This document shows positions 9,927 through 63,778 of a stretch of DNA of 64,000 nucleotides, in pieces; the stretch's first letter is position 1; every line of letters starts with the position of its first letter. Made by a program: the position numbers and the translations under genes. The notes beneath the pieces are model-generated. The model saw nothing but the letters and a program-made list of their open reading frames with translations. It ran no database searches and was not told where the DNA came from. This stretch comes from an uncultured Negativicutes bacterium. Lineage in GTDB: Bacteria > Bacillota > Negativicutes > JBAXTZ01. The stretch spans positions 22,781 through 86,780 of the forward strand of contig CAVRJL010000016.1 of NCBI GenBank assembly GCA_963721525.1, given 5' to 3'.

Positions 9927-11307
9927 TTATTCGAAAAAATAATTTTGAAACTTAGTCTTTTCCCCATAGTGAATATTTACTATTAGGTAGTAAATACTCA
10001 GTATATAACTACCTCTATTTCTTCAGGTATTGATCTATTTATAGGAACAGATCTTGGTTGAAGTTTTCAACTGCTGGTAGTTGCTACAGACGATAATATG
10101 CCGATGGAGTCATAAATGAATATAAAGGATAGTCTCTTATCCTTGAATATTGGCGCTTATGTCCAACTTTTCCTCATCTACAAGTTAATGCTGACACAAT
10201 TTTTAGTAATGCTCAAAATAATAAAATCCATATTAAAATCCGCTATAATTTAGGGGCCTTACTACAACCAGCGATAGTGATAGAAAATTAACAAAATAAA
10301 GCAGTTCCGGTAAATTTAAAAAACATTAGCTATAAAATGATACAATCTGTACAACGTAACAATTTAATAAATGTGCTATACACCTTCCTAATAATTAATA
10401 TATTTTTACTACAATAAAAAAGGATCTACTTCTTTTTTTTATCTCAACTAATTATTGTAACTAGATCAATAGTAAATATTAATGTTATTATAGAAGGAGT
10501 ATAAAACTATAAGGTAACAATGAAGCTAAAATTCAATTATTATGAGAAAAATGAGGAATAAACACAAGTTAAGTATACATATATTTATAAATGTATATAC
10601 TTATTAATATATATTGTAAGAGGAGTTCTTGTATATTCAGACATATATTTAAAAATTAGTATTTGCATTAAGACGTATTATAAGCTATAAGATTAGCATA
10701 AATTCAAGTTCTACTAATAAGTACTTTGCCGAAGTGGAACTTATTTTTAGTAGTATTTTTATATACTTTATTCACTTAAAAAAGATGTAATTTTATCTTA
10801 TTATTCACTTTGCTGAGAAAGTACTCATAAGAAATACAAACACGATACAAAATTTTTGGGATTAGGAAATAAATTAAAAGCTTTAGAATAAATTCCCTTA
10901 AAATAGGTTTTTTAAATTAAACACAGTCTTTGAAAATATGTTAAATTTATCCAAAATAAAAATAAAACAGAAAAATTAATAAATGAATTATCTAAAATTA
11001 AAATAAATTATTTTATGAAAACTATGGCAAAGGAATATAAAAATCCGAACGAAGCATTAAAAAATAATAGAGTATAATTTCACTATAATGTACAAGAGAT
11101 TATAGAAGATATAAAAATGAAGTAATAGATAAATGTAATTAAATAAAAGAAAACTATCTGCTACAAAATTCAATAAAATGGTATATGCACGAATTTATAC
11201 TAGAAGCTGAATTATTCTCTTTAAATAAGATAATTAGAATAGATGATAAAAACCGTAATGTATAATATGTGTTTAATTTGATTTTTTATAAAAACTTCTA
11301 AAATATA

Positions 11308-11335
11308 TTGAAAATCGTTGTTAAAGTAGTATAAT
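11308..11335 (+). promoter_or_regulatory. Sigma-70-type promoter for the downstream small RNA
   Basis: TTGAAA (11308-11313), a 16-nt spacer, then TATAAT (11330-11335). The RNA closing helix starts about 7 nt downstream. Confidence 0.6.
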
Positions 11336-11341
11336 AAAGTT

Positions 11342-11545
11342 GAGCCTGACAGAAAGCTTAGGAGAGAGTCCGATGACACAGAATAACTCAAAACTAACAT
11401 AGTTAGACCAACTCAATGTGTTTGTAAAATAAACGAGAAGCAATATTAAGAATGGATACTGATGAATGTGTTTAAGAGTGTGGCTGAATAAGCGAGGTTG
11501 ATGATCGAAATTAAATATCTTAGTCAAGTTTTCTGTTAGGCTATT
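11342..11545 (+). ncRNA. Unclassified ~200-nt structured small RNA
   Basis: A 13-bp closing helix pairs AGCCUGACAGAAA (11343-11355) with UUUCUGUUAGGCU (11530-11542). Internal hairpin CUAAC-AUA-GUUAG. No credible ORF. Bounded by a promoter and a terminator. Confidence 0.5.
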
Positions 11546-11563
11546 TTAAGTGAATTATTAATA

Positions 11564-11604
11564 ATAGTCCAGATGATAAAAGCTGTTTTTATCGTCTGGA
11601 CTAT
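11564..11604 (+). terminator. Rho-independent terminator-like hairpin
   Basis: An 18-bp stem pairs 11564-11581 with 11587-11604 (one G-U pair). The loop is GCUGU and UAAAUAUUU follows. Confidence 0.65.
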
Positions 11605-12119
11605 TAAATATTTAGAGTAATACTAAACAGTATATATATTGATTTGTTAGGGATATAATTAAGTTCGGAATAGCAGCGCAAGCTCCTGGCGATGTACTAT
11701 GGATAGTCACGCAAGATGAAATCAGTAAGACTAGGACTTGAGCGGACTGACAAGCAATATAAAAGCAATAGCAAAGCATGCAAATTCAGAGGAGCATTTC
11801 GAGATAGGCAAAACAATCATTAGGTAAATTAGAATACAACCCTCGTGCTAACTTGTTTAATGGTTATGGGTTAAATAGACAAGAGACGTCGCTAATTTTA
11901 AAATTAAGAAATAAAATTGAGACTAGAAATACGATACAGATAATGATTTTTGCTATGAGTAAGTATTACTGGGCTTACGGATTATCTATTGACAAAACGT
12001 TACACAAATCAATGTTCTAAAACGACCTATATATGCACCTATATACGCGTTATCGAAAGATTAACTACCAAAACAGTTATGGATAGATCGTTGATTATAC
12101 GAATGAAGGATGGTTAATG

Positions 12120-12620
12120 CTGACAAATACCTATAGGTTAGATTATACATTCGAAGAAATATCTTTAGCAATGAGAATTCAAGAAGGTGGTTTGATTTCA
12201 AATTGGTTAACTTTTGGAGATGTTGCTTATGAGTTTCTAAAAGCGACAGACTTTCGCGAACACTTAGCGAATCTCGTTAACTTCTAGCTTATATGATTGT
12301 GTGTGAAAAACATGATAATATGCGCGGTATTGTACCAATTGAAGCTGAACTGTTAGCTGTTGACGTAGATAGTACAGCTCAACGATTTTTATTAGGCCAT
12401 TAGAGTATGAGGCGAACGGTTAACAAGTTGGATGAATTATGGTTATTGCAAAACTTAGAACGAAATAAGAGAATTAATTGTCGATAGTTATTTCCCTAAT
12501 AAGAACGGAGAAGCACATTCAGTAGCTTTGTGTTTTATTGATTCCGGCTTTCGCACTAGACGAAGTATGTGACTTTTTTTATGTACTCAGACGTTTACTA
12601 TCTATCTAAAGAAGCGCTCA
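12120..12620 (+). pseudogene. Relic of a phage terminase large subunit (GpA/lambda-A family)
   Basis: Colinear fragments broken by stops and frameshifts: SNWLTFGDVAYEFLKA...HLANLVNF, VPIEAELLAVDVDSTAQRF (cf. lambda VPDRVAYLTAGIDSQLDRY), IRV*GERLTSW and NGEAHSVALCFIDSGFRT (cf. ICWDTGGIDPT). Confidence 0.55.
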
Positions 12621-12958
12621 TCCGTTAAGATAACGATTATTTAGCACATCGAATATCGATAGAATGCTATATACGGAATTAAACTGTATATAATTAATAT
12701 TTATGTGTTTAAAGATTTCATTAATGGAAGATGATATGTTGCTGTAGATTGCGAACAATGAGTAAATGCACAAAATGAAAAAATTATGCCAAAAAATAGA
12801 CAGAATAAGGGATTAATTAATATCAATATTTAATATTTTTTTAATTCATCAGGTTTAATACTTTTTTAATCATATAAAAAATTTTTTAAGATGATTTCCT
12901 GCTTAACTTTATTTTTCTCTGTTTTATTAAAAACTTTTATAATCTTTTATTTTATTTC

Positions 12959-16376: not shown

Positions 16377-16865
16377 TTGTTTATGAAAAAAATATCATTG
16401 GTTTTACTAAGTTTCATATTTATTTTTACCGTTGCTGGTTGTGGGAAAACACAAGTAGGAATAGTTGACCAAGGAAAAATAATGAAAAATAGTGAGCACA
16501 TGAAGCGAATTGGAGAGGAATTTAGAAAAAAAGCTACAGATTTACAGGAAGAAGAATATAAAGCACGCCAAATGATAAAAGATGAAATTTCTAAACAGAA
16601 GAAAAATCAGGAAATTAGAAGTAAATGGGAAAAATTACAGAGCGAGACACAACAAAAAGTATTTACAGAATTAAAAGCAGCTGTACAAACTATTGCTAAA
16701 GAAAAGGGGTTAGACATAGTTGCTGAAAACATGGTTATTTATACAACTGGAACAGATATCACAGACGAGGTTGTTAAAAGACTAGATGTAAATATTCAAT
16801 CACAATTTCAATCTAAAGTTAAACCTAAAGAAGTACTCCCCGAAGGGAAAAAAGAGGAGATCTAA
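16377..16865 (+). CDS. Skp/OmpH-family periplasmic chaperone, lipoprotein form
   Basis: Signal peptide with lipobox TVAGC. Coiled, Lys/Glu-rich body GIVDQGKIMKNSEHMKRIGEEFRKKATDLQ typical of OmpH. Confidence 0.75.
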   Translation: MFMKKISLVLLSFIFIFTVAGCGKTQVGIVDQGKIMKNSEHMKRIGEEFRKKATDLQEEEYKARQMIKDEISKQKKNQEIRSKWEKLQSETQQKVFTELKAAVQTIAKEKGLDIVAENMVIYTTGTDITDEVVKRLDVNIQSQFQSKVKPKEVLPEGKKEEI

Positions 16866-21524: not shown

Positions 21525-21568
21525 AAAAATAAAATAAACCTATAATATTATAGGTTTATTTTATTTTT
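21525..21568. terminator. 44-bp perfect palindrome, likely terminator of the tRNA-Ser pair
   Basis: Arm 21525-21546 pairs with 21547-21568 (AAAAATAAAATAAACCTATAAT|ATTATAGGTTTATTTTATTTTT). It lies 20 nt downstream of the tRNA on the minus strand. Confidence 0.6.
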
Positions 21569-22096: not shown

Positions 22097-23689
22097 ATGA
22101 AAAAAAAAATAATAGCGGCAATATTAAGTGTTACTTTTACGATGAGCTTCAATTTAGTAGGTTGTGCTTATGCTTTAACAACTATAAGCCCCTTCAGTGA
22201 TGTACCGAAAAGTAATTGGGCGTATAGTGCAGTAGAGGAGTTAGTAAAAAAGGGAATCATAGAAGTGGGTCCTGATAAAATGTTTCGAGGGAACCAAAAT
22301 GTTACAAGATATGAACTAGCAGCCATAATTGTTAGGGCGGTTAGTTCTTACAAAGGAGCAGATAATCACAGTATCTCTCTATTAGAAAAACTTGTTAGAG
22401 AGTTTGCAGTAGAACTAAGAGATATTGAAATTCAGTCAAACAATTCACAAGTGCAAGTGAAAATGAAAGTGAAAAATTTAGAAAAAAAAGTGAATACACT
22501 ACCTAAAGTCAGCGGAACTTTTTCGGTATTAAATTATACTACAATGAGTCAATTGGTTGACCTTTACGGAAGAACTGTTATAAATCCTAAGTGTGATGAG
22601 ACCTTTTTTTCAACTAATAAATTTAGGACAAATTTACAATTTAATGGAAACATTGATACAAAATGGAACTATATTGGCGAATTACAACTCGAATTACCTA
22701 TGAACTATAAGGACTATGAAAATAACTCTAATGTGAACGCGCAGATGCGTAGTATTTGTGCAAACGGTAACTTTTGTAATGGATGTAAAGTGAATATAGG
22801 ACGTTTTGGAGCTTCATCTACTTTATTAAGTAATGGAGTACAAGGTTTACTGTATGGTGATAATCGTATTAACGGAGCGCGTTTAGTATATGAAAATAAA
22901 GGATTTAAAGCTGATATTTTTGGCGGATTTTCTGATGTTGGTATGCCTAGATATTATAGTATAGGAGGAATGGAGCGAGGAGCATTGGGTACAGGTTTTA
23001 TGTTAGGTTATAGTGTTAACGATATTGTTAATATATATGCAGGAATCAAGGAACATATAGGACATAATGCGCCACGTAAAAACAATCCTTACAGCAAAGA
23101 AACGTGGTCTCCTATTCAGCATATAACATTTGCAGAGGGAGGTTTTGATATCAAACCAATTGAAAATGTTAAAATAAGCTCTTTGTTTGGCTGGTCCCCT
23201 AATATGAAAGACGAATATATTTATTTGTGGAATGGAAAACCACACGGCTTTTTTCAAGCTCCTTTCCTTGAAAATCGTGGTTTTTATGATAATATAGCAT
23301 GTATTGCACGTATAGATGTGGGGGATTTTGATTTACAAAAAAGATGGTCCTTAAACGCATATGGTCAATTTCATTACGCTGGGAAATATGCCATAATAAA
23401 CAAGTATATACCTCTTAGCGTAGACGTAGATGGTTACGATTATGGTCATGGCAATGATGGAATTTGTTTAGGAAAAGAGGGGCGAGAAGCAGGTATGAAC
23501 TTCGTTTTATTCAAAAATGTAAATTGGCATACTTTTGTAACTCAGACAAGTATGGAACCGACGCTAAATAGAATGGTGAGAGTGCCTTATTTAGTTACAA
23601 GAAAGGGCAAACTATCTTGGGATAGATTACACTATTGGGAAAGAGACCCTATTGTAACTGTAGGCTCGGAACTTAGTTTTTCTTTCTAA
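22097..23689 (+). CDS. SLH-domain outer-membrane porin (OmpM-like)
   Basis: Signal peptide, then the SLH domain FSDVPKSNWAYSAVEELVKKGIIEVGPDKMFRGNQNVTRYELAAIIVRAV and a coiled linker. The C-terminal part is rich in aromatic/Gly alternating beta-strands and ends in SF. Confidence 0.8.
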   Translation: MKKKIIAAILSVTFTMSFNLVGCAYALTTISPFSDVPKSNWAYSAVEELVKKGIIEVGPDKMFRGNQNVTRYELAAIIVRAVSSYKGADNHSISLLEKLVREFAVELRDIEIQSNNSQVQVKMKVKNLEKKVNTLPKVSGTFSVLNYTTMSQLVDLYGRTVINPKCDETFFSTNKFRTNLQFNGNIDTKWNYIGELQLELPMNYKDYENNSNVNAQMRSICANGNFCNGCKVNIGRFGASSTLLSNGVQGLLYGDNRINGARLVYENKGFKADIFGGFSDVGMPRYYSIGGMERGALGTGFMLGYSVNDIVNIYAGIKEHIGHNAPRKNNPYSKETWSPIQHITFAEGGFDIKPIENVKISSLFGWSPNMKDEYIYLWNGKPHGFFQAPFLENRGFYDNIACIARIDVGDFDLQKRWSLNAYGQFHYAGKYAIINKYIPLSVDVDGYDYGHGNDGICLGKEGREAGMNFVLFKNVNWHTFVTQTSMEPTLNRMVRVPYLVTRKGKLSWDRLHYWERDPIVTVGSELSFSF

Positions 23690-27619: not shown

Positions 27620-28045
27620 ATGAGTAAAAAAATATATAAAATAACTTGCATAAAAGAAATGTTCAAATTGGGAGAAAAAATAGGAAAAAGGCTTATCAAC
27701 AAAAATATAGTTTTGTTAAATGGGGAAATAGGCGCTGGAAAAACTACTTTAACAAAAGGAATAGCTTTAGGGCTAGATATTAAGAAAAATATAACGAGTC
27801 CGACTTTCAATTTATTGAACGTTTATTCTGGAAAATATATTTTATATCATTTTGATTTATATAGAATAGAATCTCATTTTGAATTAGAAGACATTGGATT
27901 TTATCAATTTATTAAAAACAAAGGTATTGCAGTTATAGAATGGGGAAAAAACTTTATTTGCCATATACCTGGAAAAACTATAATGATAGAAATAAATGTT
28001 AAAAACGGGTTGCGTTTAGTTAAAATAGAAGGAATCAAGATTTGA
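27620..28045 (+). CDS. tsaE: tRNA t6A37 biosynthesis ATPase TsaE
   Basis: P-loop LNGEIGAGKTTLTKG and SPTFNL motif. Confidence 0.85.
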   Translation: MSKKIYKITCIKEMFKLGEKIGKRLINKNIVLLNGEIGAGKTTLTKGIALGLDIKKNITSPTFNLLNVYSGKYILYHFDLYRIESHFELEDIGFYQFIKNKGIAVIEWGKNFICHIPGKTIMIEINVKNGLRLVKIEGIKI

Positions 28046-28046
28046 A

Positions 28047-28721
28047 ATGACAATATTGGGCATTGAAACTGCTACTTTAGCTTGTAGTGTATGTTTATTA
28101 AATAATAATAGGATTATTAGAGAAATTACTGATCAAAATAATTTAAATCATTCGGTAAAGCTAGTTCCGAATATTGTACAATTATTCGATAAAATCGATT
28201 ATAAAAAAAATAAATTAAATGCAGTAGCGATTAGCAAAGGACCTGGTTCATTTACAGGGTTAAGGATTGGAATGGCTGTAGCAAAAAGTTTAGCTTATGC
28301 ATTGAACATACCTATTTTGGCTGTACCTACTATGCGGGGGATGGCCATGCAATGTAGACATCGTGGAAAATATATTATCCCAATTATTAACGCTCAACAA
28401 AATACTATATATGCACAAATTTATGGAGCAGCAGGAGAATGTAGTGATACATATATGTTACCAATAAAAGATATACCAAAACTTATAAAGAATTCAGACA
28501 AATATGTTTTTTGTGGAGAAATTTCATCTGAAGAAATCGACATCATAAAGACAATTCCAAATGCAAGTATTGTAGAAAAAAAATTATTGCTTCCGCGAGC
28601 AAAATATGTAGCATTTATAGGTAAAAGATATTTAGAATGTGGAATGGAAGAGGAACAGTTTTTTTTAGAACCAATGTATATAAGAAAACCAGCAGCAGAA
28701 GAAAAACTTAATGTAAAATGA
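28047..28721 (+). CDS. tsaB: tRNA t6A37 biosynthesis protein TsaB
   Basis: ILGIETAT...GPGSFTGLRIGMAVAKSLA. Confidence 0.85.
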   Translation: MTILGIETATLACSVCLLNNNRIIREITDQNNLNHSVKLVPNIVQLFDKIDYKKNKLNAVAISKGPGSFTGLRIGMAVAKSLAYALNIPILAVPTMRGMAMQCRHRGKYIIPIINAQQNTIYAQIYGAAGECSDTYMLPIKDIPKLIKNSDKYVFCGEISSEEIDIIKTIPNASIVEKKLLLPRAKYVAFIGKRYLECGMEEEQFFLEPMYIRKPAAEEKLNVK

Positions 28722-28776
28722 TATAATTGAAACGAAAAATAAGATTAAGTTTAGGAGCTAATTATTACTAGAAATA

Positions 28777-29232
28777 ATGTTTAAAATACGCAGAATGTTT
28801 TTCTATGAAGCCGAAGAAGTATATAGAATAGAAAAGCAATGTTTTAATGTTTCTATAGGGTCTTTAGATGTGATTATTAATAAAGCGTGTGGTGAAAGCA
28901 CTATATATCTTGTTGCAGTTGCGAAAAATAAAATAGTAGGTTATTGTGAATTTTGGGTTATCGTTGATGAAATTCATATGAATAATATTGCTGTTTTACC
29001 TGAATTTAGAAGAAAAGGAATTGCTAATGCTTTATTAAAAGAAACTATAAACTATGGAATGAGTCACAGTGCAATATCGATGACTTTAGAAGTTAATGTT
29101 AATAACATACGAGCTCTTAATTTATATTATTCTTTAGGTTTTATTAGTGAAGGGCGAAGAATTGATTATTATGCTAAAGACCAAGATGCCCTTATTTTAT
29201 GGAACCGTAAATTATCAGAAAGCAGTTTTTAA
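28777..29232 (+). CDS. rimI: Ribosomal-protein-alanine N-acetyltransferase RimI (GNAT)
   Basis: GNAT motif IAVLPEFRRKGIANALL. It sits between tsaB and tsaD as in many Firmicutes. Confidence 0.8.
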   Translation: MFKIRRMFFYEAEEVYRIEKQCFNVSIGSLDVIINKACGESTIYLVAVAKNKIVGYCEFWVIVDEIHMNNIAVLPEFRRKGIANALLKETINYGMSHSAISMTLEVNVNNIRALNLYYSLGFISEGRRIDYYAKDQDALILWNRKLSESSF

Positions 29233-29233
29233 A

Positions 29234-30265
29234 ATGAATAAGAAAAAAAATATATTGATTTTGGCTATAGAAACAAGTTGTGATGAAACATGTGCTTCGG
29301 TCGTTGCAAATGGACGCAAAATATTATCAAATGTGATCTCATCACAAATTAATACGCATGCATTATATGGAGGAGTAGTACCTGAAATTGCTTCACGTAA
29401 GCATATCCAAATCATAACTTTTATAATAGATGAAGCTATAAATCAAGCCAAAGTAACATTAGATGATCTAGATGCCATTGCTGTAACTTATGGGCCAGGA
29501 CTTATTAGCTCATTATTAGTTGGAGTTTCTGTTGCCAAAGGTTTGAGTTTTGCAAAAAATAAACCGCTTATAGCAGTAAACCATATAGAAAGTCATATTT
29601 TTGCTGCTTTTTTAGAGTACGAAGATTTAACCCCTCCGTTTTTGTCTCTTATAGTATCAGGTGGACATACTTCATTGATTAAAGTATATAATTACAATAA
29701 ATTTGAAGTAGTAGGCCAAACAAGAGATGATGCTGCAGGGGAGATATTTGATAAGGTTGCACGCGTAATGAGCTTAGCCTACCCTGGCGGCCCTGAAATT
29801 GAAAAAAAAGCGAAAAACTGTTACAATATAACAATTAGCTTTCCTAAACCAAAATTTAAAAAGAATTGTAGGGAATATTCTAATAATTATGATTTCAGTT
29901 TTAGCGGAATAAAATCAGCAGTTATTAGTTTTTTTAGGAATAGAAATGAAAAAGAATTAAATATTAACGACGAAGAAATAGCGGCTGCTTTTCAACAAAC
30001 TGTTTGTGAATATTTAGCTGAAAATACTATGAAAGCAGCTATTGAGTTTAGTAGTACTAAATTAGTCTTAGCGGGAGGAGTAGCTTCTAATGAAAAATTA
30101 CGTAGTACAATAAAGAGCTTATGTAATAAAATGAATATAAAGTTATATATACCCACTCCTATTTTATGTACTGATAATGCTGCTATGGTTGCAGCACGTG
30201 CATATCGAAAATTTCTTTCAGAAGAATATGCAAATTTAGATTTAGATGCGAAATCAATTTTATAG
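29234..30265 (+). CDS. tsaD: tRNA N6-adenosine threonylcarbamoyltransferase TsaD
   Basis: ILAIETSCDETCASV, HIESHIFA and GGVASN. Start is placed at ATG 29234, just after the rimI stop; the track ORF extends upstream into rimI. Confidence 0.95.
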   Translation: MNKKKNILILAIETSCDETCASVVANGRKILSNVISSQINTHALYGGVVPEIASRKHIQIITFIIDEAINQAKVTLDDLDAIAVTYGPGLISSLLVGVSVAKGLSFAKNKPLIAVNHIESHIFAAFLEYEDLTPPFLSLIVSGGHTSLIKVYNYNKFEVVGQTRDDAAGEIFDKVARVMSLAYPGGPEIEKKAKNCYNITISFPKPKFKKNCREYSNNYDFSFSGIKSAVISFFRNRNEKELNINDEEIAAAFQQTVCEYLAENTMKAAIEFSSTKLVLAGGVASNEKLRSTIKSLCNKMNIKLYIPTPILCTDNAAMVAARAYRKFLSEEYANLDLDAKSIL

Positions 30266-31874: not shown

Positions 31875-32297
31875 ATAGTAAATGGACTAAATGTTTTAAA
31901 AGTAAAAAATACAGCTAAAATAGCACGGAGGATTATGATTTCTATTAAAAATGGTGGAAATAATTTAGGTATAAGTGTGAGATTAAAATTAGATTTACAA
32001 GAAGTTAAAGAAAATAATATTCTAAAAGAGAATATCAATTCAGATATCCAGAGAAAACTAGGAGGACTGGAAGAAGAAAATATAAGTGCTATTATGTATG
32101 AAAAGTACGGTCTGACTGGGGTAGCAGTATTAATAGAAGCTATAACTGATAATAGAAATATTACTGTTGCGGATATGCGCCATCTTTTTACAAAGTTTGG
32201 TGAAAAATTAGGCGAGATAGTTTGCGTAAATTGGATGTTTAAAAATAAAGGTCAATTTACTATTAAAAAAATAAAAAAATTGATGAAGATAAAATAA
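31875..32297 (+). pseudogene. yebC: Truncated, divergent YebC/PmpR-family gene
   Basis: The central part is colinear with YebC (YEKYGLTGVAVLIEAITDNRNITVADMRHLFTKFGEKLGE...VNWMFKNKG). The N-terminus is interrupted by TAG TAA and roughly the last 100 residues are missing. It has the classical position upstream of ruvC. Confidence 0.6.
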
Positions 32298-34900: not shown

Positions 34901-36211
34901 ATGAGAATAATTAGGGTTCAATCTAATTTGAAAATTTTATTAGGTTTATCGTCAATAGAGTTTTGGGAGCGGTTCAGTTTTTATACTCTTTCTTATTTAT
35001 TACCATTTTATATGGTTGATAAAATTATAAATGGTGGAATGGGTTTTTCGGAAACAAGAGCACTGTTCTGGGTAGGGATTTATGGGTTTTGTGCATGGTC
35101 TTCTCCTGTACTTGGCGGAATTATTATTGATCGATATCTAGGACTTTTTAACTCTATTTTATTTGGTGGAATGTTAATTATTTGTGGACATTTAACTTTA
35201 TTTTTTATAAATGTTAATAACTTTCTAATGTTGTTTTTAGGCTTATTGTTAATATGTATCGGTACAGGCTTATTTAAGCCATCCATTACAGGATTAGTTG
35301 GACAAGTATATGACAATAGTCCTTTTTATCGAGAAAGAGCATATTCATTTTATTATTCGATTATTAATTTAGGCATATTATTAAGTGGTATGATAAATGG
35401 GTTAGTAGTAGCGAAACTTGGTTATAAATGGGGGTTTTCAATAGCAGGAATAGGTATGATTGTAGCGATGTTTTGGATTATAGTTCAATTTTCAGCATTT
35501 AGAGAAAAAATTTACTTTATCGATAAAGTAAATAAGCGTGAAACTATCTTAAAATCTCATAAAAATAAATCTTTCATTAGTAAAATAGTTTTACTTTTCA
35601 GTTATTTATGTTCTTGGCTATGGGCTTGCGGTTATTTTTTAGGTATAGGTGGGTTTATCATGTTTCTTATAAAACAATACACTAATCGGAGTATAGGTTT
35701 TTTTAAGATTCCAATTTTTTGGTTTCCATCGCTTAGTCCTTTGTTGTTAATATTATTTACTTTTATGCTTAACTTTATATGGAAAAGGCTAGACAATATT
35801 TATATGGAACCTTCGACCTTTCGTAAACTTGCTTTTGGGCAATTAATATGCGGTATAAATTTAGGTATATTAGTTATTTTATTGTTAAGTATAAAAAATA
35901 TTTCTCCAAACGCGCATATATTGAAACTCGATTTCTTTATTATTTTTTATATTATTGGAGTTATCGGAGAAATTTTAACATGTCCAATAAGTTATTCATT
36001 AATAAGTTCTGTAAGCAAAACAAAAAACATTGGTTTAAATCAAGCAGTTTGTTTTGCATGCTATGGTTTAGGCTCTATTACGGCGGGAAGTATAGCATCA
36101 TTATTTTATTTAAATTATTCTATAAACTGGATAGTATTTTTTATGATCTGTTCATTTATTACAGCTTTTTCAATGATTTATATTGAAAAAAAATTAAATT
36201 TACAGAATTAA
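34901..36211 (+). CDS. Proton-dependent oligopeptide transporter (POT/PTR2) family protein
   Basis: FWERFSFYTLSYLL and GGIIIDRYLG motifs with a multi-TM profile. Confidence 0.8.
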   Translation: MRIIRVQSNLKILLGLSSIEFWERFSFYTLSYLLPFYMVDKIINGGMGFSETRALFWVGIYGFCAWSSPVLGGIIIDRYLGLFNSILFGGMLIICGHLTLFFINVNNFLMLFLGLLLICIGTGLFKPSITGLVGQVYDNSPFYRERAYSFYYSIINLGILLSGMINGLVVAKLGYKWGFSIAGIGMIVAMFWIIVQFSAFREKIYFIDKVNKRETILKSHKNKSFISKIVLLFSYLCSWLWACGYFLGIGGFIMFLIKQYTNRSIGFFKIPIFWFPSLSPLLLILFTFMLNFIWKRLDNIYMEPSTFRKLAFGQLICGINLGILVILLLSIKNISPNAHILKLDFFIIFYIIGVIGEILTCPISYSLISSVSKTKNIGLNQAVCFACYGLGSITAGSIASLFYLNYSINWIVFFMICSFITAFSMIYIEKKLNLQN

Positions 36212-36641
36212 ATTAAGAACATTAAAGTGCAATATATATATATTTTTTTGCTTTTAACATTTATTTGAATAAAGAATTAATTCGTCGTTTAAATAAAGGA
36301 AAACAACTTATACAAGATGAAAAATTATTCCTTTATTTATACTGACAAAATTTGTTTGGCAAAAAACTTTTATTTTAAATATAAATTAAAATAAGTTACT
36401 GATTCTTCAATAAAAAATGTATGTTAGAAATTTATGACAACTTTATTGTAATTGTATTTTTAGTAAAAAAGGCAGTAGACTTTTTTAAAATTTATGATAC
36501 AACATATATGGGTTATGTCAAGAGTATCAATGAAAGAAGATTTTTAAGTAAGTATTGACGTGGAGAGTTTTGTGAGGATTCAAGGTAAAAAGTGGGAAGA
36601 AAGGAAGGTGATTCCAATGATAAATTTTATTTATAATGCTT

Positions 36642-37259
36642 CTAATCTAACAAATCCTTTATTACTTCTCCTGCAATTATTAATCCTGCTATTGCCGGAA
36701 GAAATGAAATGCTTCCAGGAGAAGTTTTTCCTGAAGATGATTTTATAAAGCATTTTTTTGGTGTTTCCGTTGAGTATACTACTTTTAAATTTTTAATATT
36801 TTTTTTACGTAGTTCCTTTCTTATTATTCTAGAGAAAGGACAATTTTGGGTTTCAAAAATATTTCCTATTTTAAATTTTGTAGGATCAAGTCTATTACCT
36901 ACTCCCATAGAATTTATAATAGGTATTTTTAAATCTATGGCATTATGTATTAAACACACTTTTGCTTTTATTGTATCTATAGCATCTATTATATAATTAC
37001 AATGGTGTAATAGCATGCTTTTTATATTAATAAACCATGATAGAGTATGTTCTACAAATATAAATCGGCAGATACATGCTACTTACGAAACAATTAATAT
37101 AAAGTTTCCTATGTCTGCCCGCGCTAACGATTCTACTGCGTATGAACCCACTCCCCCAATTCCGAATACACCAATAGTACTGGCTTGTAATTTTTGTAGC
37201 CCATTATTACCAATAAGAAGTTCAGTTCTAGAAAATTGATTTATAAAATTTTTATTCAT
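36642..37259 (-). pseudogene. tcdA: tRNA threonylcarbamoyladenosine dehydratase TcdA (ThiF/E1-like), disrupted by an internal inverted segment
   Basis: The minus-strand N-terminal part reads ...GVFGIGGVGSYAVESLARADIGNFILIVS*. The C-terminal ORF is MLLHHCNYIIDAIDTIKAK.... The missing NINRQIHA core is encoded on the plus strand at 37032-37092. Confidence 0.7.
37021..37103. repeat. 11-bp perfect inverted repeats flanking a 61-bp inverted coding segment
   Basis: TTTATATTAAT (37021-37031) and ATTAATATAAA (37093-37103). Confidence 0.85.
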
Positions 37260-38181
37260 TGTTTTGTTCTATATATTGTTCCACCATTTTTGCAGCTATA
37301 GCTCCATCTGATGTTGCTGTAACTATTTGTTTTAATAGTTTTTTTCGACAATCACCTGCGGTAAATATCCCATTTATATTTGTTTTTGTTGTTTCGTTAG
37401 CAATTATATATCCTTCTTCATCAATATTTAACAAATTAGAAAAAATTTCGGTGTTTGGTATCATACCAAGATAAATAAATATTCCTTCGGTATTATGAAT
37501 ACTTTTTTCGCCGGTAACAGTATTTTTTATTGTTATACTTTCTACAATTTCTGTACCATTGATTGATTCAATGACACTATTAAAACAAAAATTTATTTTC
37601 GGATTATTGAAAGCTCTATCTTGTAAAAACTTTGTAGCTCGTAACTTATTGCGACGGTGTACTATTGTTACTATTTGAGCAAATTTTGTAAGATTAAGAG
37701 CTTCTTGAATTGCTGAGTTCCCACCGCCTACAAAAACAATATTTTTTGCATTATTATAAAATGCGCTATCACAAATTGCACAATAAGATACTCCCATACC
37801 TCGAAATTCTTTTTCTCCAGGACAATTTAAGGTTCGAGCTCTAGCACCTGTAGCTATTATTATAGTTTTGGAATTAAAACTTTTGTTAGTTATAGTCTGA
37901 ACACTTTTAATTTTATTATCTAAAATTAATTTTGTAGCTTTTACAGTAATTTTTTGAATATTATCAAAATGCTTAATTTGATTTTCCATATAATTACTTA
38001 GACTATATCCTGAAATATTACCGGGGGTACCCGGATAGTTTTCAATGTTATTTGTAACAAGCATTTGTCCACCTATAGAACCTTGCTCAATTAATAATAT
38101 ATTTAATTTCGCTCTACCGCAATACAGGGCTGCAGTTATTCCTGCTGGTCCACCACCTATAATTATTGTATCATATATCAT
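37252..38181 (-). CDS. trxB: Thioredoxin-disulfide reductase
   Basis: IIIGGGPAGITAA, redox-active CAICD and the GGGNSAIQEA NADPH motif. Confidence 0.9.
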   Translation of the reverse strand: MIYDTIIIGGGPAGITAALYCGRAKLNILLIEQGSIGGQMLVTNNIENYPGTPGNISGYSLSNYMENQIKHFDNIQKITVKATKLILDNKIKSVQTITNKSFNSKTIIIATGARARTLNCPGEKEFRGMGVSYCAICDSAFYNNAKNIVFVGGGNSAIQEALNLTKFAQIVTIVHRRNKLRATKFLQDRAFNNPKINFCFNSVIESINGTEIVESITIKNTVTGEKSIHNTEGIFIYLGMIPNTEIFSNLLNIDEEGYIIANETTKTNINGIFTAGDCRKKLLKQIVTATSDGAIAAKMVEQYIEQNNE

Positions 38182-38486
38182 AGAAATCTCCTTAATAATG
38201 GTTAATAGAAATATTTATATAATTGCATAATATAAGGTAATTATAAAACAATATATAATATTACGCAATTTAAAATAAACGTAGTGAAATAACAAAAGCA
38301 TGTATGTTAAAGGATAGAACTTAAGAATGTACTTGTTATCCTAAATTTAGCAAAAAAATAAATTATATACATATATAAATAAAAAATTGTAATACGGGTA
38401 TAATAGTAAAAAATTCTTTTAAAATTACAACAATTTTAAAAGAGGAATCAACATCCTTAGATTAATTTTATTACTATAAAAAGCTC

Positions 38487-38515
38487 TTGCTTATTTATAC
38501 TTAATTTGATATAAT
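38487..38515 (+). promoter_or_regulatory. Promoter upstream of rplS with extended -10
   Basis: TTGCTT (38487-38492), a 17-nt spacer, then TGaTATAAT (38507-38515). Confidence 0.5.
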
Positions 38516-38593
38516 ACACAGTTGTTTATAAAGATGGTCCTATATATAAATTAAATACTTTGGTAAGAACATCTATGTTTCAGGAGGAGAAAA

Positions 38594-38941
38594 ATGAATT
38601 TAATTGAATTAATTAATCAGGATCAACTACGTTCGAATATTCCTGAATTTCGACCAGGGGATACTCTAAAGGTGATGGTCAAAATTGTTGAGGGAAGTCA
38701 CGAGCGTTTACAAGCTTTTGAAGGTGTTTGTATTAAACGTAATGGTGGAACAAGGATACAAGCAACATTTACTGTTCGAAGAATGACTTATGGAGTTGGA
38801 ATTGAGAGAACTTTTCCTCTTCATTCTCCTCGTATTGATAATATAAATATTATTCGTAGAGGTGTTGTTCGTCGAGCACGATTGTATTATTTACGTAATC
38901 TTACAGGAAAAGCAGCACGTATTCGTGAAAAAAGATCATAA
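38594..38941 (+). CDS. rplS: 50S ribosomal protein L19
   Basis: [28 protein letters not shown]...RRAKLYYLR-type sequence. Confidence 0.95.
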
Positions 38942-38990
38942 CTATCCAAAAAGAGCCATATGGCTCTTTTTGGATAGTTATGATCTTTTT
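38929..38990. terminator. 62-bp perfect palindrome overlapping the rplS stop codon (probable bidirectional terminator)
   Basis: Arm 38929-38959 is the exact reverse complement of 38960-38990, centred on CATATG. Confidence 0.6.
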
Positions 38991-46225: not shown

Positions 46226-47055
46226 ATGATGGCTCTTAAAACTTTTAAACCAACATCTAAAGGTAGACGTTTTATGAGTGTTGCTGATTTTTCCGATATT
46301 ACTGCAACAAAGCCGGAACGTTCTTTAGTAGTTAAATTAGATAAACATGGTGGGAGAAATCACCAGGGGCGTTTAACTGTGCGTCATCAGGGTGGAGGCG
46401 CTAAAAGAAAATATAGAATTATTGATTGGAAAAGGAATAAGGAAAATATAATTGCTAAAATAGCAACTATTGAATACGATCCTAATCGTTCCGCCTATAT
46501 TGCTTTATTGCATTATATGGATGGAGAAAAGCGTTATATTTTAGCGCCTAATGGAATAAGAGTCGGAGACATTGTATTAAGTGGAAACGAAGTTGATATT
46601 AAGATAGGAAATTGTTTACCTCTTAAAAATATTCCTGTAGGTAGTACTGTCACAATATGGAAATGAAAATAGGCAAGGGGGCTGAAATGGTACGTTCTGC
46701 AGGGTCTTTTGCTCAACTTATGGCGAAAGAAGGGAAATATGCTTTATTGCGTTTGCCTTCAGGAGAACAACGTAAAGTTCACTTTAATTGTAGAGCGACT
46801 ATTGGACAAGTGAGTAACATTAATCATGAAAATATTACTATTGGGAAAGCTGGACGAAATCGTTGGTTGGGGAAAAGACCTGAAAATCGCGGAACCTCAA
46901 TGAATCCTTGCGATCATCCTCATGGTGGGGGAGAAGGGCGTTCTCCAATAGGTCGGAAACATCCCGTTACTCCTTGGGGAAAATGCGCAATGGGAGCGAA
47001 AACTCGGCATAAAAAACTTTCTGATAAGATGATAGTGTCTCGACGTGTAAAATAA
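46226..47055 (+). pseudogene. rplB: 50S ribosomal protein L2 gene interrupted by a 1-nt deletion
   Basis: ...NIPVGSTV in frame 1 stops at 46664-46666. [18 protein letters not shown]... continues in the -1 frame from 46651. Total length is 830 nt, i.e. 3n-1. Confidence 0.85.
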
Positions 47056-47072
47056 ATAAATAGGAGGGAATA

Positions 47073-47357
47073 ATGTCAAGATCGACAAAAAAAGGACCTT
47101 ACGTCCATTCAAGTATATTAAAAAAAATAAACATCATGAATGAAAAAAATGAAAGAAAAGTATTTAAAACATGGTCAAGGACTTCCACAATTTTGCCTAG
47201 CTTTGTAGGCCATACTATAGCAGTACACGATGGTCGTAAACATGTTCCTATATATATGACTGAAGATATGGTTGGGCATAAGCTGGGAGAATTTGTGCCA
47301 ACAAGAACTTTTAAAGGTCACGGGTCTCATACAGAGCGTTCAACATCGTTGAAATAA
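47073..47357 (+). CDS. rpsS: 30S ribosomal protein S19
   Basis: [10 protein letters not shown]...[29 protein letters not shown]. Confidence 0.95.
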
Positions 47358-47369
47358 TGGGAGGATTGA

Positions 47370-47702
47370 ATGGAAGCTATAGCTAAAGCAAAATATATAC
47401 GAATTGCGCCTAGGAAAGCACGTATAGTAATTGATTTAATTCGTGGTAAAAATATTGATGAAGCCATTGCAATTTTGAAGTTCACTCCAAAAATCGGGGC
47501 ACTGATTGTTGAAAAAGTTTTAAAATCTACTATTGCAAACGCTGAACATAATTATAATATGAATACTTCAAAGTTATACGTATCAAAGGCTTTAGTAGAT
47601 CAAGGACCAACGTTGAAAAGAATTCATCCAAGATCTCGAGGTCAGGCATTTAAAATTTTGAAAAAAACAAGCCATATCACTATGGTTGTTGCTGAAAGGT
47701 AG
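47370..47702 (+). CDS. rplV: 50S ribosomal protein L22
   Basis: [18 protein letters not shown]...[26 protein letters not shown]. Confidence 0.95.
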
Positions 47703-47714
47703 TAGGAGGGGATT

Positions 47715-48377
47715 GTGGGGCAAAAGGTAAATCCGCATGGATTAAGAATAGGAATTATAAAATCTTGGGATGCTAAATGGTACGCAGATAAAGATTTTGC
47801 GAAATATTTGCATGAAGATATAAAGATTCGTAATTTATTAAAGAAGAAATTATATACTGCTGGAATTTCTCGCGTTATTATAGAACGTAATGGAAATCGT
47901 CTTAAAGCCACTATTTTCACAAATAAACCAGGTATAATTATAGGACGAAGCGGTGCAGGTATAGAAGAAATAAAAAAAAATATAGGTCAATTTACTGACC
48001 ATAATATAGAAGTGCAAATTCAAGAAATAAAACAAATTGACTTGGATGCAGTGTTAGTAGCACAGTTTATTGCTGCTCAATTGGAAAAAAGAATAGCATT
48101 TCGTCGTGCTATGAAACAAGCTGTGATACGAACTATGCGTGCTGGTGCTAAGGGAATAAAAGTTATGGTAAGTGGTCGTTTGGGAGGAGCAGAGATAGCT
48201 CGAAATGAGCTATATAGAGAAGGAAGTATTCCTCTTCACACGTTGCGTGCAAATATCGACTATGCTATTGCACAAGCGCATACTACTTATGGTATTATTG
48301 GCGTAAAAGTATGGATATATAAAGGTGAAATTTTGCCTCAAAAAAAAATTCTTTCTGCTGAAGGAGGCAAACAATAA
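47715..48377 (+). CDS. rpsC: 30S ribosomal protein S3
   Basis: [13 protein letters not shown]...[13 protein letters not shown] start. Confidence 0.95.
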
Positions 48378-48988
48378 TGCTTGTTCCAAAAAGAAGTAAA
48401 TTTCGAAAACAATTTCGTGGTAGAATGGTTGGTAAAGCAAATAAAGGAAATAAAGTCTCTCATGGCGAATTTGGATTAACGGCTTTAGAACCGTCTTGGA
48501 TCACAAATAGACAAATTGAAGCTGCTCGTATTGCGATGACACGTTATATTAAGCGTGGAGGACAAGTTTGGATAAAAATTTTTCCAGATAAACCTGTAAC
48601 TGCAAAGCCAGCTGAAACTCGTATGGGTAGCGGTAAAGGTTCTCCAGAATATTGGGTTGCTGTGGTGAAACCAGGTAGGGTTATGTTTGAAATTGCTGGA
48701 GTGTCTGAAGAGGTTGCAAAAGAAGCATTTCGTTTAGCTGGTCATAAATTACCTATTAAAACAGGTTTTATTAAAAAAGAAACGGAAGGTGAAGTAGTGA
48801 AACAAATGAAAGTTAAAGAGATCCGTGAAATGAACGATAATGAATTATTAGGAAAGTTGAATAAATTAAAAGAAGATCTTTTCAACTTACGTTTCCAACT
48901 TGCTATTGGGCAATTAGAAAACTTTTCGCGAATACGTGAAGTAAAAAAAAGTATTGCTAGAATAAAAACTGTACAGCGTGAACAGTGA
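48377..48988 (+). CDS. rplP: 50S ribosomal protein L16, no stop codon, reading in frame into L29
   Basis: The first 143 aa are L16 ([17 protein letters not shown]...[13 protein letters not shown]). The ORF then continues directly into the L29 sequence. Confidence 0.85.
48806..48988 (+). CDS. rpmC: 50S ribosomal protein L29 (in frame within the rplP ORF)
   Basis: [39 protein letters not shown]. Confidence 0.85.
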
Positions 48989-49023
48989 ACTGAAACGCGC
49001 TTAGGAAAGGAAGAGGTAAAAAA

Positions 49024-49272
49024 GTGGAAAGAAATGAACGCAAAGTACGTATTGGTAAAGTCGTAAGCAATAAGATGAAAAAAACTGTGGTTATTTCTAT
49101 CGACCGTATCGTTTCTCATCCAATGTATAAGAAGTTGGTAAACCATACAAAAAAATTTAAAGCTCATGATGAAAAGAATGAATGTTCTATAGGCGATACA
49201 GTTAAGATTATGGAAACACGTCCATTATCTAAAAATAAATATTTTAGAGTAGTAAAATTACTGAAAAAGTAA
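49024..49272 (+). CDS. rpsQ: 30S ribosomal protein S17
   Basis: [23 protein letters not shown]...[26 protein letters not shown] start. Confidence 0.95.
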
Positions 49273-49316
49273 AATAAAACAATTTAGTTGTTTTATGAGC
49301 TGAAGGAGATAATTTA

Positions 49317-49685
49317 ATGATTCAGCAAGAAACAAGATTGAATATTGCGGATAATACCGGAGCAAAAGAAATATTATGTATTCGTGTATTGGGAGGATCT
49401 TTCCGTAGATATGCTAATATTGGAGATGTTATTGTTGGTTCTGTCAAAGAGGCATCCCCCGGAGGCGTTGTTAAGAAAGGGGAAGTTGTAAAAGCGGTAA
49501 TTGTTCGTTCTGCTAAAGGACTGAAACGTTCGGATGGATCGTATATTAAATTTGATGATAATGCGGCTGTTATTATAAAAGATGATAAGTCTCCTAAAGG
49601 CACTCGTGTATTTGGCCCAGTAGCGAGAGAGTTGCGTGAAAAAGATTTTATGAAGATAATTTCGCTTGCGCCAGAAGTAATTTAG
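49317..49685 (+). CDS. rplN: 50S ribosomal protein L14
   Basis: [18 protein letters not shown]...FGPVARELR. Confidence 0.95.
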
Positions 49686-49710
49686 GAAGTAATTTAGGCG
49701 GAGGTTTGGA

Positions 49711-50050
49711 ATGGTTAGGGGAAAAAAAATACATATAAAAAAAGGCGACAATGTTATAGTTTTATCAGGAAAGGATAAAGGGAAAAAGGAAAGATTATAG
49801 AAGTTATTACCTAACAGTGGAAAAGTTATAATAGAAGGGATAAACAAAGTATACAAACATATGCGTTCTACTCACAAAAAATCCTCAAGGCGGTATTATA
49901 CTTAAAGAAGCTCCGATTTATGGGTGTAAAGTTATGTTATTATGTCCAAGTTGTAATAAACCGACTAGAATTAGTAAGACGGTTTTATCAGATGGGGAAA
50001 AAACTCGTGTTTGTAAAAACTGTGAGGAAATAGTTGATAGCAGAAAATAA
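49711..50050 (+). pseudogene. rplX: 50S ribosomal protein L24 gene with three frameshifts
   Basis: The conserved sequence is spread over three frames: MVRGKKIHIKKGDNVIVLSGKDKGKK | GKIIEV | [22 protein letters not shown] | [31 protein letters not shown].... Length is 340 nt, i.e. 3n+1. Confidence 0.85.
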
Positions 50051-50071
50051 CGCGTAGAAAGGAGTAAAAAA

Positions 50072-50633
50072 ATGGCATCAAGGCTAAAAGAAAAATATTT
50101 TAAAGAGATTGCCGATATTTTAAAGGCAAAATTTAATTACAAAAATATTATGCAAATCCCAAAAATTGAAAAAGTAGTAATTAATGTCGGTATTGGAGAA
50201 GCGGTCGGAACTCCTAAAACGATAGATGTCAGCTATGCAAGATATAATGACTATTTCCGGACAAAAGCCTGTTATTACTAAAGCTAAAAAATCAATTGCG
50301 GCATTTAAAGTCCGTCAAGGTATGAATTTAGGAATAAAAGTAACTCTTCGCAATGAGAGAATGTATTATTTTTTAGATAAATTAATTAATGTAGCATTGC
50401 CAAGAGTACGTGACTTCCGTGGAGTAAGTTCAACGTCTTTTGATGGACGAGGAAATTATAACTATGGGTGTTAAGGAACAACTTATTTTTCCTGAGATAG
50501 AATATGATAAAGTTGATGAAATTCGTGGCATGGATATTGCGATTATAACTACGTGCAGAAAATGATGAAGAAGCGCGTGAATTATTAAAATTATCGGCAT
50601 GCCATTCAGCGTAAAGAAAGGGGAAATAGATAA
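50072..50633 (+). pseudogene. rplE: 50S ribosomal protein L5 gene with four to five frameshifts
   Basis: Segments [10 protein letters not shown]...PKTID | [26 protein letters not shown]...GRGNYNY | [29 protein letters not shown] | [12 protein letters not shown] | GMPFS lie in successive frames. Confidence 0.85.
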
Positions 50634-50819
50634 TGGCAAAAAAATCAATGATAGAAAAATGGAAAAGCGAACCGAAATTTCCAACTCGTAAATATAACAG
50701 ATGCGAAATTTGTGGGCGTCCACATGGATATTTGAGAAAATTTAAAATGTGTAGAATTTGTTTTCGGAATTCAGTGCTATAAAGGTGCTATTCCGGGTGT
50801 AACTAAAGCAAGTTGGTAA
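50633..50819 (+). pseudogene. rpsN: 30S ribosomal protein S14 (Zn-ribbon short form) gene with one frameshift
   Basis: [46 protein letters not shown], then a +1 nt shift into [13 protein letters not shown]. Length is 187 nt. Confidence 0.85.
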
Positions 50820-50845
50820 GCTTTTTATAAAGGGGGTTAACAATA

Positions 50846-51247
50846 ATGGTAATGACCGATCCTATTGCTGATATGCTTACTCGAATTCGTAATGCTAATT
50901 CGGTTTATCATGCTAAAGTTGAAATACCGGCGTCAAAAATAAAAGAGGCAATTGCTCATATTCTAAAAGCAGAGGGATTTATAACGGATTATAAATTTAT
51001 CGGAAATAATAAACAAGGTATTTGAAAGGTTCGATTACGTTATAATATAGATAAACAGAAAGTAATTTCACTGGAATTAAACGTATTTCTAAACCCGGAT
51101 TACGCGTTTATGCCAAACAGCGAGGAAATACCACGTGTATTTGGGGGCTTAGGTATTGCCATTATATCGACTTCGCAGGGGCTTATGTCTGATAAGCATG
51201 CACGTAAAGCTAGTCTCGGTGGTGAAGTTATAGCTTATGTTTGGTAA
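50846..51247 (+). pseudogene. rpsH: 30S ribosomal protein S8 gene with an in-frame TGA and a compensating -1/+1 indel pair
   Basis: [18 protein letters not shown]...NKQGI*KVRLRY, with the TGA at 51023. [17 protein letters not shown] is readable only in another frame (about 51070-51120). Then [19 protein letters not shown] follows in the original frame. Confidence 0.85.
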
Positions 51248-51276
51248 TAAGCGAATAAGCGGAGGTGAATATAAAT

Positions 51277-51825
51277 ATGTCAAGAATTGGTAGAAAACCA
51301 ATTATTATACCCAAAGATATTAATTTAGAAATTAATAATAATTTTATTACAATACAAGGACCTAAAGGGCAATTAAGTAGACAAATTAATATAAAAATAA
51401 AGATTGAAGTAAATAATAATGAATTAATTGTAAGACGTCTAAATGATGATAAAATACAAAAAAGTATGCACGGATTATCCAGAACATTAATTGCTAATAT
51501 GATTGAAGGAGTAACTAAAGGTTTTAGTAAAACTCTAGAAATAGTAGGTATAGGTTATCGTGCTGCTAAAACTGAAAATAATTTAACTTTAACTTTAGGG
51601 TTTTCTCATCCTATAGTAGAAGTACCACCAAAAGGAATAAGTATTGATGTGCCAACTCAAAATAAAATTGTAATTAATGGTATTGATAAAGAAGCGGTAG
51701 GTGCTTTTGCCGCAAAAATTCGGGGGTATCGTGCACCTGAACCTTATAAGGGGAAAGGAATTAAGTATGAGGGCGAATTAATACGTCGTAAAGCCGGAAA
51801 AACTGGAGCTAAAGGTAAAAAATAA
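51277..51825 (+). CDS. rplF: 50S ribosomal protein L6
   Basis: [15 protein letters not shown]...GYRA.... ATG 51277 follows GGAGGTG; the track ORF starts at 51265. Confidence 0.95.
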
Positions 51826-63737: not shown

Positions 63738-63778
63738 CATATGTTATTGGTTAGATACATTCTAACCAATAACATATG
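63738..63778 (+). terminator. 18-bp perfect-stem hairpin followed by a T-rich tract
   Basis: CATATGTTATTGGTTAGA (63738-63755), loop TACAT, then TCTAACCAATAACATATG (63761-63778), followed by GTCTATTTTT. Confidence 0.5.

Follow-up and report, generated by a model that had tools for sequence, protein, structure and literature searches.

We analyzed a 64,000-nucleotide stretch of DNA from an uncultured Negativicutes bacterium (hereafter 'the window', meaning this whole stretch) and describe here a split gene at 36642-37259 on its minus strand. The gene is a remnant of tcdA, which encodes the tRNA cyclic threonylcarbamoyladenosine (ct6A) synthase, or threonylcarbamoyladenosine dehydratase, and a segment encoding part of the protein's core lies on the wrong strand between two short inverted repeats. 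The locus is organized as follows:

36642..37259, minus strand: whole tcdA remnant (tRNA ct6A synthase/threonylcarbamoyladenosine dehydratase pseudogene), 618 nt, in frame throughout, with one TAA in the present orientation.
37083..37259, minus strand: N-terminal fragment of 58 amino acids, with the P-loop GIGGVGS and the beta-2 strand GNFILI; it enters the inverted segment and ends in GNFILIVS followed by the stop.
37093..37103, no strand assigned: gene-proximal arm, ATTAATATAAA on the plus strand and TTTATATTAAT in gene sense, encoding the native conserved F-I-L-I of beta-2.
37032..37092, plus strand: inverted spacer of 61 bp, encoding NHDRVCSTNINRQIHATYET, with the ribose-binding position (Asn for Asp) and the ATP-phosphate contacts T/N and Arg.
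37021..37031, no strand assigned: gene-distal arm, TTTATATTAAT on the plus strand and ATTAATATAAA in gene sense, coding for I77-N78-I79-K80, with the junction of a 30-codon deletion in or at the arm.
37017..37028, minus strand: stretch within which alignment gaps place the junction of an in-frame deletion of 90 bp (30 codons).
36642..37016, minus strand: C-terminal fragment of 124 amino acids, starting MLLHHCNY, with the DAID motif and the TcdA C-terminal domain; intact.
37252..38181, minus strand: trxB (thioredoxin-disulfide reductase), intact, immediately upstream; TIGR01292 score of 356 bits against a cutoff of 343.

The inverted repeat is perfect. TTTATATTAAT at 37021-37031 is answered at 37093-37103 by its exact reverse complement, ATTAATATAAA; the arms are exactly 11 bp long, extend no further, and enclose a spacer of 61 bp (37032-37092). 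Read on the plus strand in frame 2, this 61-mer encodes the TcdA motif NHDRVCSTNINRQIHATYET. Reverse-complementing it fuses the 58- and 124-amino-acid minus-strand open reading frames (ORFs) into a single frame of 205 amino acids, or 206 codons with the stop. The native minus-strand frame stays in register through the spacer and its sole break is one TAA, such that the frame is kept in both orientations of the segment and no other stop or frameshift occurs across the 182 codons of the remnant, in sequence of 30% GC. The present sequence can be written as the first arm, the reverse complement of that arm plus the spacer, and then the downstream sequence. A preliminary description of this DNA, made from its letters, had reported an 11-bp inverted repeat around 61 bp, a core motif on the opposite strand, and an uninterrupted 206-codon frame on flipping the segment; we confirmed these coordinates and frames, and the observation is correct in every detail. 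Because the tcdA start (ATG, 37257-37259) and the trxB stop (37252-37254) overlap by 8 nt, the remnant is probably still co-transcribed with trxB. The inversion also creates a spurious 74-amino-acid ORF on the plus strand (37015-37239, beginning MLFILINHDRVCSTNINRQIHATYETINIKFPMSARAN), composed of the flipped TcdA core and the antisense of the N-terminal fragment, which a gene caller could wrongly annotate.

By hidden Markov model (HMM), PDB-sequence, tblastn, and fold searches alike, the restored frame is predicted to be a TcdA. Flipping the segment raised the score against the NCBIfam TcdA model NF011696, the top family, from 78.8 to 104.9 bits (5.5e-30), which is about a third of the curated cutoff of 304 bits and fails it. 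The Pfam ThiF score rose from 58.3 to 80.3 bits (cutoff 28.1), and the end of the aligned stretch moved from residue 56 to residue 78. An HMM alignment had been proposed in the preliminary description as a check on whether the plus-strand peptide is homologous to the TcdA core, and the rise of both scores on flipping bears that homology out. Escherichia coli TcdA was the best PDB sequence match of the restored frame, and the two are colinear, as previously suggested: the alignment to 4d7a runs through the flipped segment, with query residues 8-79 matching chain residues 12-83. In tblastn searches of the window with three intact homologs, we identified a separate plus-strand match at 37021-37098 to their residues 49-74 (62-65% identity, E 3e-6 to 6e-5) and found no second tcdA copy. 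An AlphaFold2 (AF2) model of the restored 205-amino-acid protein (mean predicted local distance difference test score, pLDDT, of 81) matched TcdA/Tcd1 in a Foldseek search with template modeling (TM) scores of 0.72-0.77 (E about 1e-13); matches to ThiF/MoeB were weaker (TM about 0.56-0.60, E about 1e-6). With TcdA at the top of the NCBIfam, PDB-sequence, and fold matches, the earlier naming of the gene stands. Three residues, T64, N65, and R68, are present only after flipping and correspond to the ATP-phosphate contacts Thr68, Asn69, and Arg72 of E. coli TcdA; in that enzyme Arg72 and Lys85 contact the alpha and beta phosphates of ATP, and Thr68/Asn69 anchor the gamma phosphate (PMC4405576).

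Even so, the restored gene still looks dead, judging from its alignment and predicted structure. Roughly 30 residues had been noted as missing relative to E. coli TcdA, and the figure is exactly 30: all 119 of the 119 aligned homologs (225-258 amino acids) carry 56-57 residues where the query has 26, which places the loss at 30 codons, in frame. The deletion removes 12 columns conserved at 90% or above and corresponds to E. coli TcdA residues ~84-116, a helix and a strand that include Lys85. The Lys85 column is at least 90% Lys in the 119 homologs and its counterpart is absent from the restored frame; alanine in place of the Lys85 counterpart inactivates the TcdA domain of TsaN (PMC10484737). 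A tblastn search for the missing 30-residue peptide elsewhere in the window returned only noise. The restored frame also carries Asn57 at the position of E. coli Asp61, at the end of beta-2 in the nucleotide site, a column in which at least 90% of homologs have Asp; an Asp that precedes the Arg by 11 residues sits at the nucleotide site (PMC10484737). Including this D57N change, the query deviates at 24 conserved columns (D57N and 23 others) compared with a mean of 3.3 per homolog. In the AF2 model pLDDT falls below 50 exactly at residues 71-78, indicating predicted disorder at the deletion junction. The C-terminal fragment aligns with E. coli TcdA residues 117-187 and contains no extra stops or frameshifts. 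The locus therefore shows the marks of a pseudogene – an in-frame TAA, a 30-codon loss that takes 12 conserved columns with it, and D57N – and the loss of the Lys85 counterpart within those 30 residues, the Asp-to-Asn change, and the disordered junction in the AF2 model all favor decay, which the preliminary description had considered the likeliest reading.

We examined the inversion in a second assembly. The Logan contig ERR11594402_647863 (3534 bp) is 100% identical to positions 35107-38640 of the window and contains the same 58- and 124-amino-acid genes, the shorter of which is called there as a ThiF-family gene. Exact-protein look-ups found these proteins only in run ERR11594402, an accession that turned up in no paper, and in the window's own 122,776-bp contig, and both assemblies show one orientation only. 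Logan contigs come from de Bruijn assembly at a k of about 31, which requires reads across the inversion junctions, and an 11-bp repeat is far too short to mislead an assembler over orientation. The restored-form protein was absent among the best 120 matches in a collection of 5.8 billion proteins, a listing that could miss a short contig of a minor variant; since an identical full-length protein would rank at the top, this absence counts against the restored form in that collection. An inversion made by the assembler, one of the explanations offered initially, is unlikely because the independent Logan assembly is 100% identical over 3.5 kb. The inversion is thus probably real and carried by the majority of the sampled population.

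The position of the deletion suggests how the inversion arose. MAFFT places the alignment gap between I77 and N78, and HMMER, aligning against E. coli TcdA, places it between I79 and M82; both placements fall in or at the gene-distal arm (I77-N78-I79-K80). We estimate the chance of a random junction landing at the arm at ~2-4% (an 11-nt arm plus alignment slack, over 618 nt). Because the deletion junction lies inside one of the repeat arms, deletion and inversion are probably linked mechanistically – a point absent from the preliminary description. The gene-proximal arm, by comparison, encodes the native conserved FILI, within a homolog consensus of GNFILID/V. Alignment thus suggests that the distal arm, and hence the perfect repeat, was probably absent before the deletion.

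Taken as a whole, we consider it likely that a real 61-bp inversion occurred in a tcdA that was already a pseudogene, with the deletion first and the inversion of the spacer second. In the initial step, a 90-bp in-frame deletion would have crippled the enzyme, building the distal arm from ATT (upstream) and AATATAAA (downstream) and, by chance, giving the FILI-coding sequence 61 bp upstream a perfect 11-bp partner. Replication would then have switched template twice between the arms and so inverted the spacer (a Ripley-type 'spacer inversion'), or recombination between the arms would have done so. Such an inversion would be neutral in a gene already dead, and the release from constraint would be compatible with a spacer of 61 bp. 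Double template switches between short perfect arms are known to invert the spacer, including cases in coding DNA whose arms match perfectly over 9-11 bp or more (PMC8604942; for a review of the mechanism, PMC5941160). Consistent with this class of event, the arms at tcdA are perfect over 11 bp and the borders of the spacer coincide with the edges of the opposite-strand TcdA homology. That 182 codons of sequence at 30% GC contain no further stop and no frameshift suggests that the lesions are recent.

A related history, which we regard as unlikely, would make both lesions in a single complex replication error, with the 'repeat' as its product rather than its cause: the nascent strand would copy the opposite strand back through the 61 bp and the 11 nt of FILI-coding sequence and then return ~90 bp downstream. 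The composition of the present sequence as arm, reverse complement of arm plus spacer, and downstream sequence is what this route predicts, the deletion abuts the copied arm exactly (the same chance of roughly 2-4% by our estimate), and the INIK encoded by the arm departs from the homolog consensus IGKPK. Two reports describe short template-switch events that leave an inversion next to indels and form a new perfect hairpin (PMC5453318, PMC8794818). This route would nevertheless need two switches on only about 3-5 nt of microhomology, and N78-I79-K80 aligns acceptably with homolog residues past the deletion (E/T-S/T-K), which suits a simple deletion junction equally well. We consider it very unlikely that the inversion stems from assembly, polishing, or library chimeras and that the gene is uninterrupted at this site in vivo, with the deletion still present. 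In its favor, the window's consensus is imperfect elsewhere (a frameshifted rplB, fused L16-L29, and fragmented L24, L5, S14, and S8), and the organism is seen in one run only, meaning that the two assemblies may share reads. Against it, the assemblies agree base for base over the 3534 bp around the site, the errors elsewhere are substitutions and 1-2-bp indels rather than rearrangements, and a repeat of 11 bp cannot lead an assembler astray. Chimeric fold-back reads, being a minority class, would not win a consensus.

A third possibility is that the locus is a reversible intragenic inverton of the premature-stop type, in which a recombinase or spontaneous flipping toggles between the split form (OFF) and the 205-amino-acid form (ON) and the sampled population is mostly OFF. 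The anatomy fits this class, in that repeats and segment lie entirely within one gene, the segment is small, and one orientation creates a stop; neither the spacer nor either ORF fragment contains a further stop or frameshift, the frame is kept in both orientations, and flips on perfect 11-bp arms can recur within species (PMC8604942). Yet the ON state would lack 30 conserved residues, including the catalytic-site Lys, and would carry D57N, making a maintained benefit hard to see, and it reaches only a third of the TcdA cutoff in HMM score. Reading the window's ORFs by eye, with spot checks, we recognized no recombinase or invertase, and the other occurrences of the arm motif flank nothing. 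Chance readily yields low-complexity, all-A/T 11-mers like the arm in this window. The Logan contig continues through the site with no break, the best 120 matches include no protein of the restored form, and it is the broken orientation that is documented. On balance we judge a switch to be quite improbable, and the stronger proposal – a reversible switch on an enzyme modifying the tRNA anticodon loop, in which the shortened form works as a minimal TcdA without the helix-strand unit of Lys85 – to be very doubtful indeed. Were it true, it would mean phase-variable control of translation fidelity via ct6A.

Several observations weigh against a deletion followed by an inversion in a dead gene. 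The Logan contig may come from the same reads as the window, the window assembly has local errors or variants elsewhere (46.6-51.3 kb), and, the evidence being assemblies, a minority of cells could hold the other orientation. The ORF fragments and the flipped segment are stop-free and well conserved, as in a maintained switch. Lineage distance may account for part of the excess of deviations at conserved columns, given that the homologs are mostly Clostridia and the query is from Negativicutes, and one homolog likewise reaches 24 deviations. Placing the deletion first rests on a gap position uncertain by ~3 codons, in an alignment to homologs of which the closest TcdA is only about 60% identical. 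Finally, template-switch spacer inversions documented in coding DNA have spacers of 2-5 bp (PMC8604942), compared with 61 bp here. An ordinary decaying gene, rather than a switch, remains the most likely reading of the tcdA locus.

The repeat by itself is not beyond chance. The window contains 27 perfect inverted repeats with arms of at least 11 bp and loops of at most 100 bp, compared with 6.9 +/- 2.6 in Markov-1 simulations, an approximately four-fold excess, and an 11-bp all-A/T repeat is unexceptional in DNA this AT-rich. What is beyond chance is that the arms lie exactly at the edges of a TcdA-homologous coding segment on the wrong strand. A screen in which every spacer between arms of at least 8 bp was flipped and scored for ORF gain returned mostly chance mergers in intergenic spacers, and was unspecific without homology. 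The arm motif occurs four times in the window against 1.5 expected; we considered a family of repeat arms and rejected it, four copies being too few. The region 37011-37113 folded as single-stranded DNA gave z = -1.2 with the 11-bp stem outside the minimum-energy structure, indicating no special hairpin, and a scan of 36150-38650 for promoters and terminators found fewer promoter-like sites than in shuffled sequences and no useful terminator. Other inverted repeats in the window have longer arms, including examples with 20-bp and 18-bp arms at 21525-21568 and 63738-63778. The window's longest hairpin by far, a perfect 29-bp inverted repeat with a 4-nt loop at 38929-38990, begins in the last codons of rplS and may act as a terminator or as a regulatory hairpin ahead of uppS.

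To place the locus among relatives, we searched for a syntenic copy or a close relative in GTDB genomes, in JGI metagenomes, and around the nearest TrxB and TcdA relatives, and found none. A scan of GTDB genomes with the restored protein recovered only Clostridia and other loci at 41-50% identity, none with trxB beside tcdA, and degenerate-codon DNA scans of JGI metagenomes for two peptides, ARADIGNFILI and HHCNYIIDAID, gave no match. The closest TcdA proteins are 52-61% identical; the gene for the best homolog (P0002, GCA_016648615.1) sits after dtd, and smc and fusA flank the gene for the closest TrxB (58% identity). SecY shares 71% identity with that of a metagenome-assembled genome labeled 'Negativicutes bacterium' and 64-66% with those of Sporomusa and Pelosinus, which places the organism in the Negativicutes; it is unusually AT-rich (30% GC).

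The genes for threonylcarbamoyladenosine (t6A) synthesis, tsaE, tsaB, and tsaD (27620-30265), are intact and score above their cutoffs; t6A is therefore presumably made and only its optional cyclization lost. Knockouts of tcdA are viable, with decoding and growth defects (PMC10484737). As ct6A is an optional derivative of t6A, tcdA is dispensable, and this dispensability, together with the intact t6A genes, makes loss of tcdA fit gene erosion in the lineage. Between guaA and ruvC, a 120-amino-acid ORF (31935-32297) matches positions 34-150 of the 245-position YebC/PmpR profile with 111 bits against a cutoff of 243, and is probably a truncated remnant and thus a second sign of erosion near tcdA.

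Several other regions of the window are described here in their own right. A comparison with another Logan contig of ERR11594402 revealed 22 differences, all within 46650-49790; these are substitutions and 1-2-bp indels with no rearrangements, and none lies at the tcdA locus. The window's rplB is frameshifted at 46650 where Logan has an intact L2 of 276 amino acids, and L16 and L29, separate in Logan, are fused in the window by a 2-bp insertion at 48797-48798. At 49.7-51.25 kb the genes for L24, L5, S14, and S8 are in fragments; Logan has no contig across 49790-51735. This ribosomal-protein damage (46650-51300) looks like local consensus error or a strain mosaic and not like real pseudogenes. 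At 9927-12958, 3 kb contain no ORF of 90 amino acids or more, with a GC fraction of 0.33-0.36 at 11.5-12.6 kb and nothing in Rfam that matches at E up to 0.1; in one frame there is a faint, sub-threshold match to a terminase GpA nuclease domain (E 0.035). The region may be a decayed prophage fragment, and we count it as a further sign of erosion in the window. The proteins encoded at 22097-23689 and 16377-16865 comprise, respectively, one with a putative S-layer-homology (SLH) domain recognized by eye and only a below-cutoff porin match, and a small lipoprotein with a weak, below-cutoff match to the chaperone Skp. Together these SLH-like and Skp-like proteins hint at a two-membrane envelope, consistent with the placement in the Negativicutes by SecY.

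These results provide a clear natural example in which a micro-inversion flanked by very short repeats has divided a gene in two. With the core motif on the opposite strand, gene callers overlook it and list two ThiF fragments that look unrelated; surveys of pseudogenes and invertons should therefore test 'flip the spacer' explicitly. We regard the locus as a new but ordinary instance of known processes, in a lineage that appears to be losing ct6A while keeping t6A, and current understanding is unchanged unless the segment actually flips. Its instructive feature is the coincidence of the deletion junction with a repeat arm, a clue that the substrate for a second lesion may arise from the first, or that both may stem from one complex template switch.

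The restored protein shares with TcdA/CsdL (E. coli PDB 4D79, 4D7A, and 4RDH; yeast Tcd1, 9HMP) the P-loop GIGGVGS, the TN..NRQ motif, the DAID motif, and the C-terminal domain. Unlike these proteins, the remnant is interrupted by the inversion, is 30 residues shorter (the helix and strand with Lys85), and has Asn for Asp at the ribose site. Among known small inversions, those associated with hairpins in plastid genomes flip loops of tens of bp between short stems, recurrently and with no recombinase, but they lie mostly in non-coding organelle spacers, whereas the tcdA case lies in bacterial coding sequence.

Premature-stop intragenic invertons provide a second comparison, in which the inverted segment of BT0375 measures 57 bp and the repeat in thiC spans 11 positions (Chanin et al., bioRxiv 10.1101/2023.03.11.532203). 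Like the Bacteroides thetaiotaomicron cases thiC and BT3786, the tcdA locus has intragenic repeats of ~11 nt, a segment of tens of bp, and a stop that yields two ORFs, in a metabolic or housekeeping gene and not a surface gene. In the Chanin et al. invertons, both orientations were demonstrated by reads or polymerase chain reaction (PCR) and the intact one encodes a functional enzyme; at tcdA only the broken orientation is documented, and the other lacks catalytic residues. The third comparison is with template-switch spacer inversion, described in yeast coding sequences by Abraham & Hazkani-Covo 2021 (PMC8604942) and, for bacteria, in work on quasipalindrome mutagenesis (PMC5941160, PMC7202029). 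The tcdA event differs from the documented coding cases in its longer spacer (61 bp against 2-5 bp), in introducing a stop where those change a few amino acids, and in adjoining a 90-bp deletion, and its un-inverted ancestor is deduced from protein homology. It resembles the Ripley-model spacer inversion in its perfect arms (at least 9-11 bp in that model), in the exact reverse-complementation of the sequence between them, in needing no recombinase, and in its position inside coding DNA.

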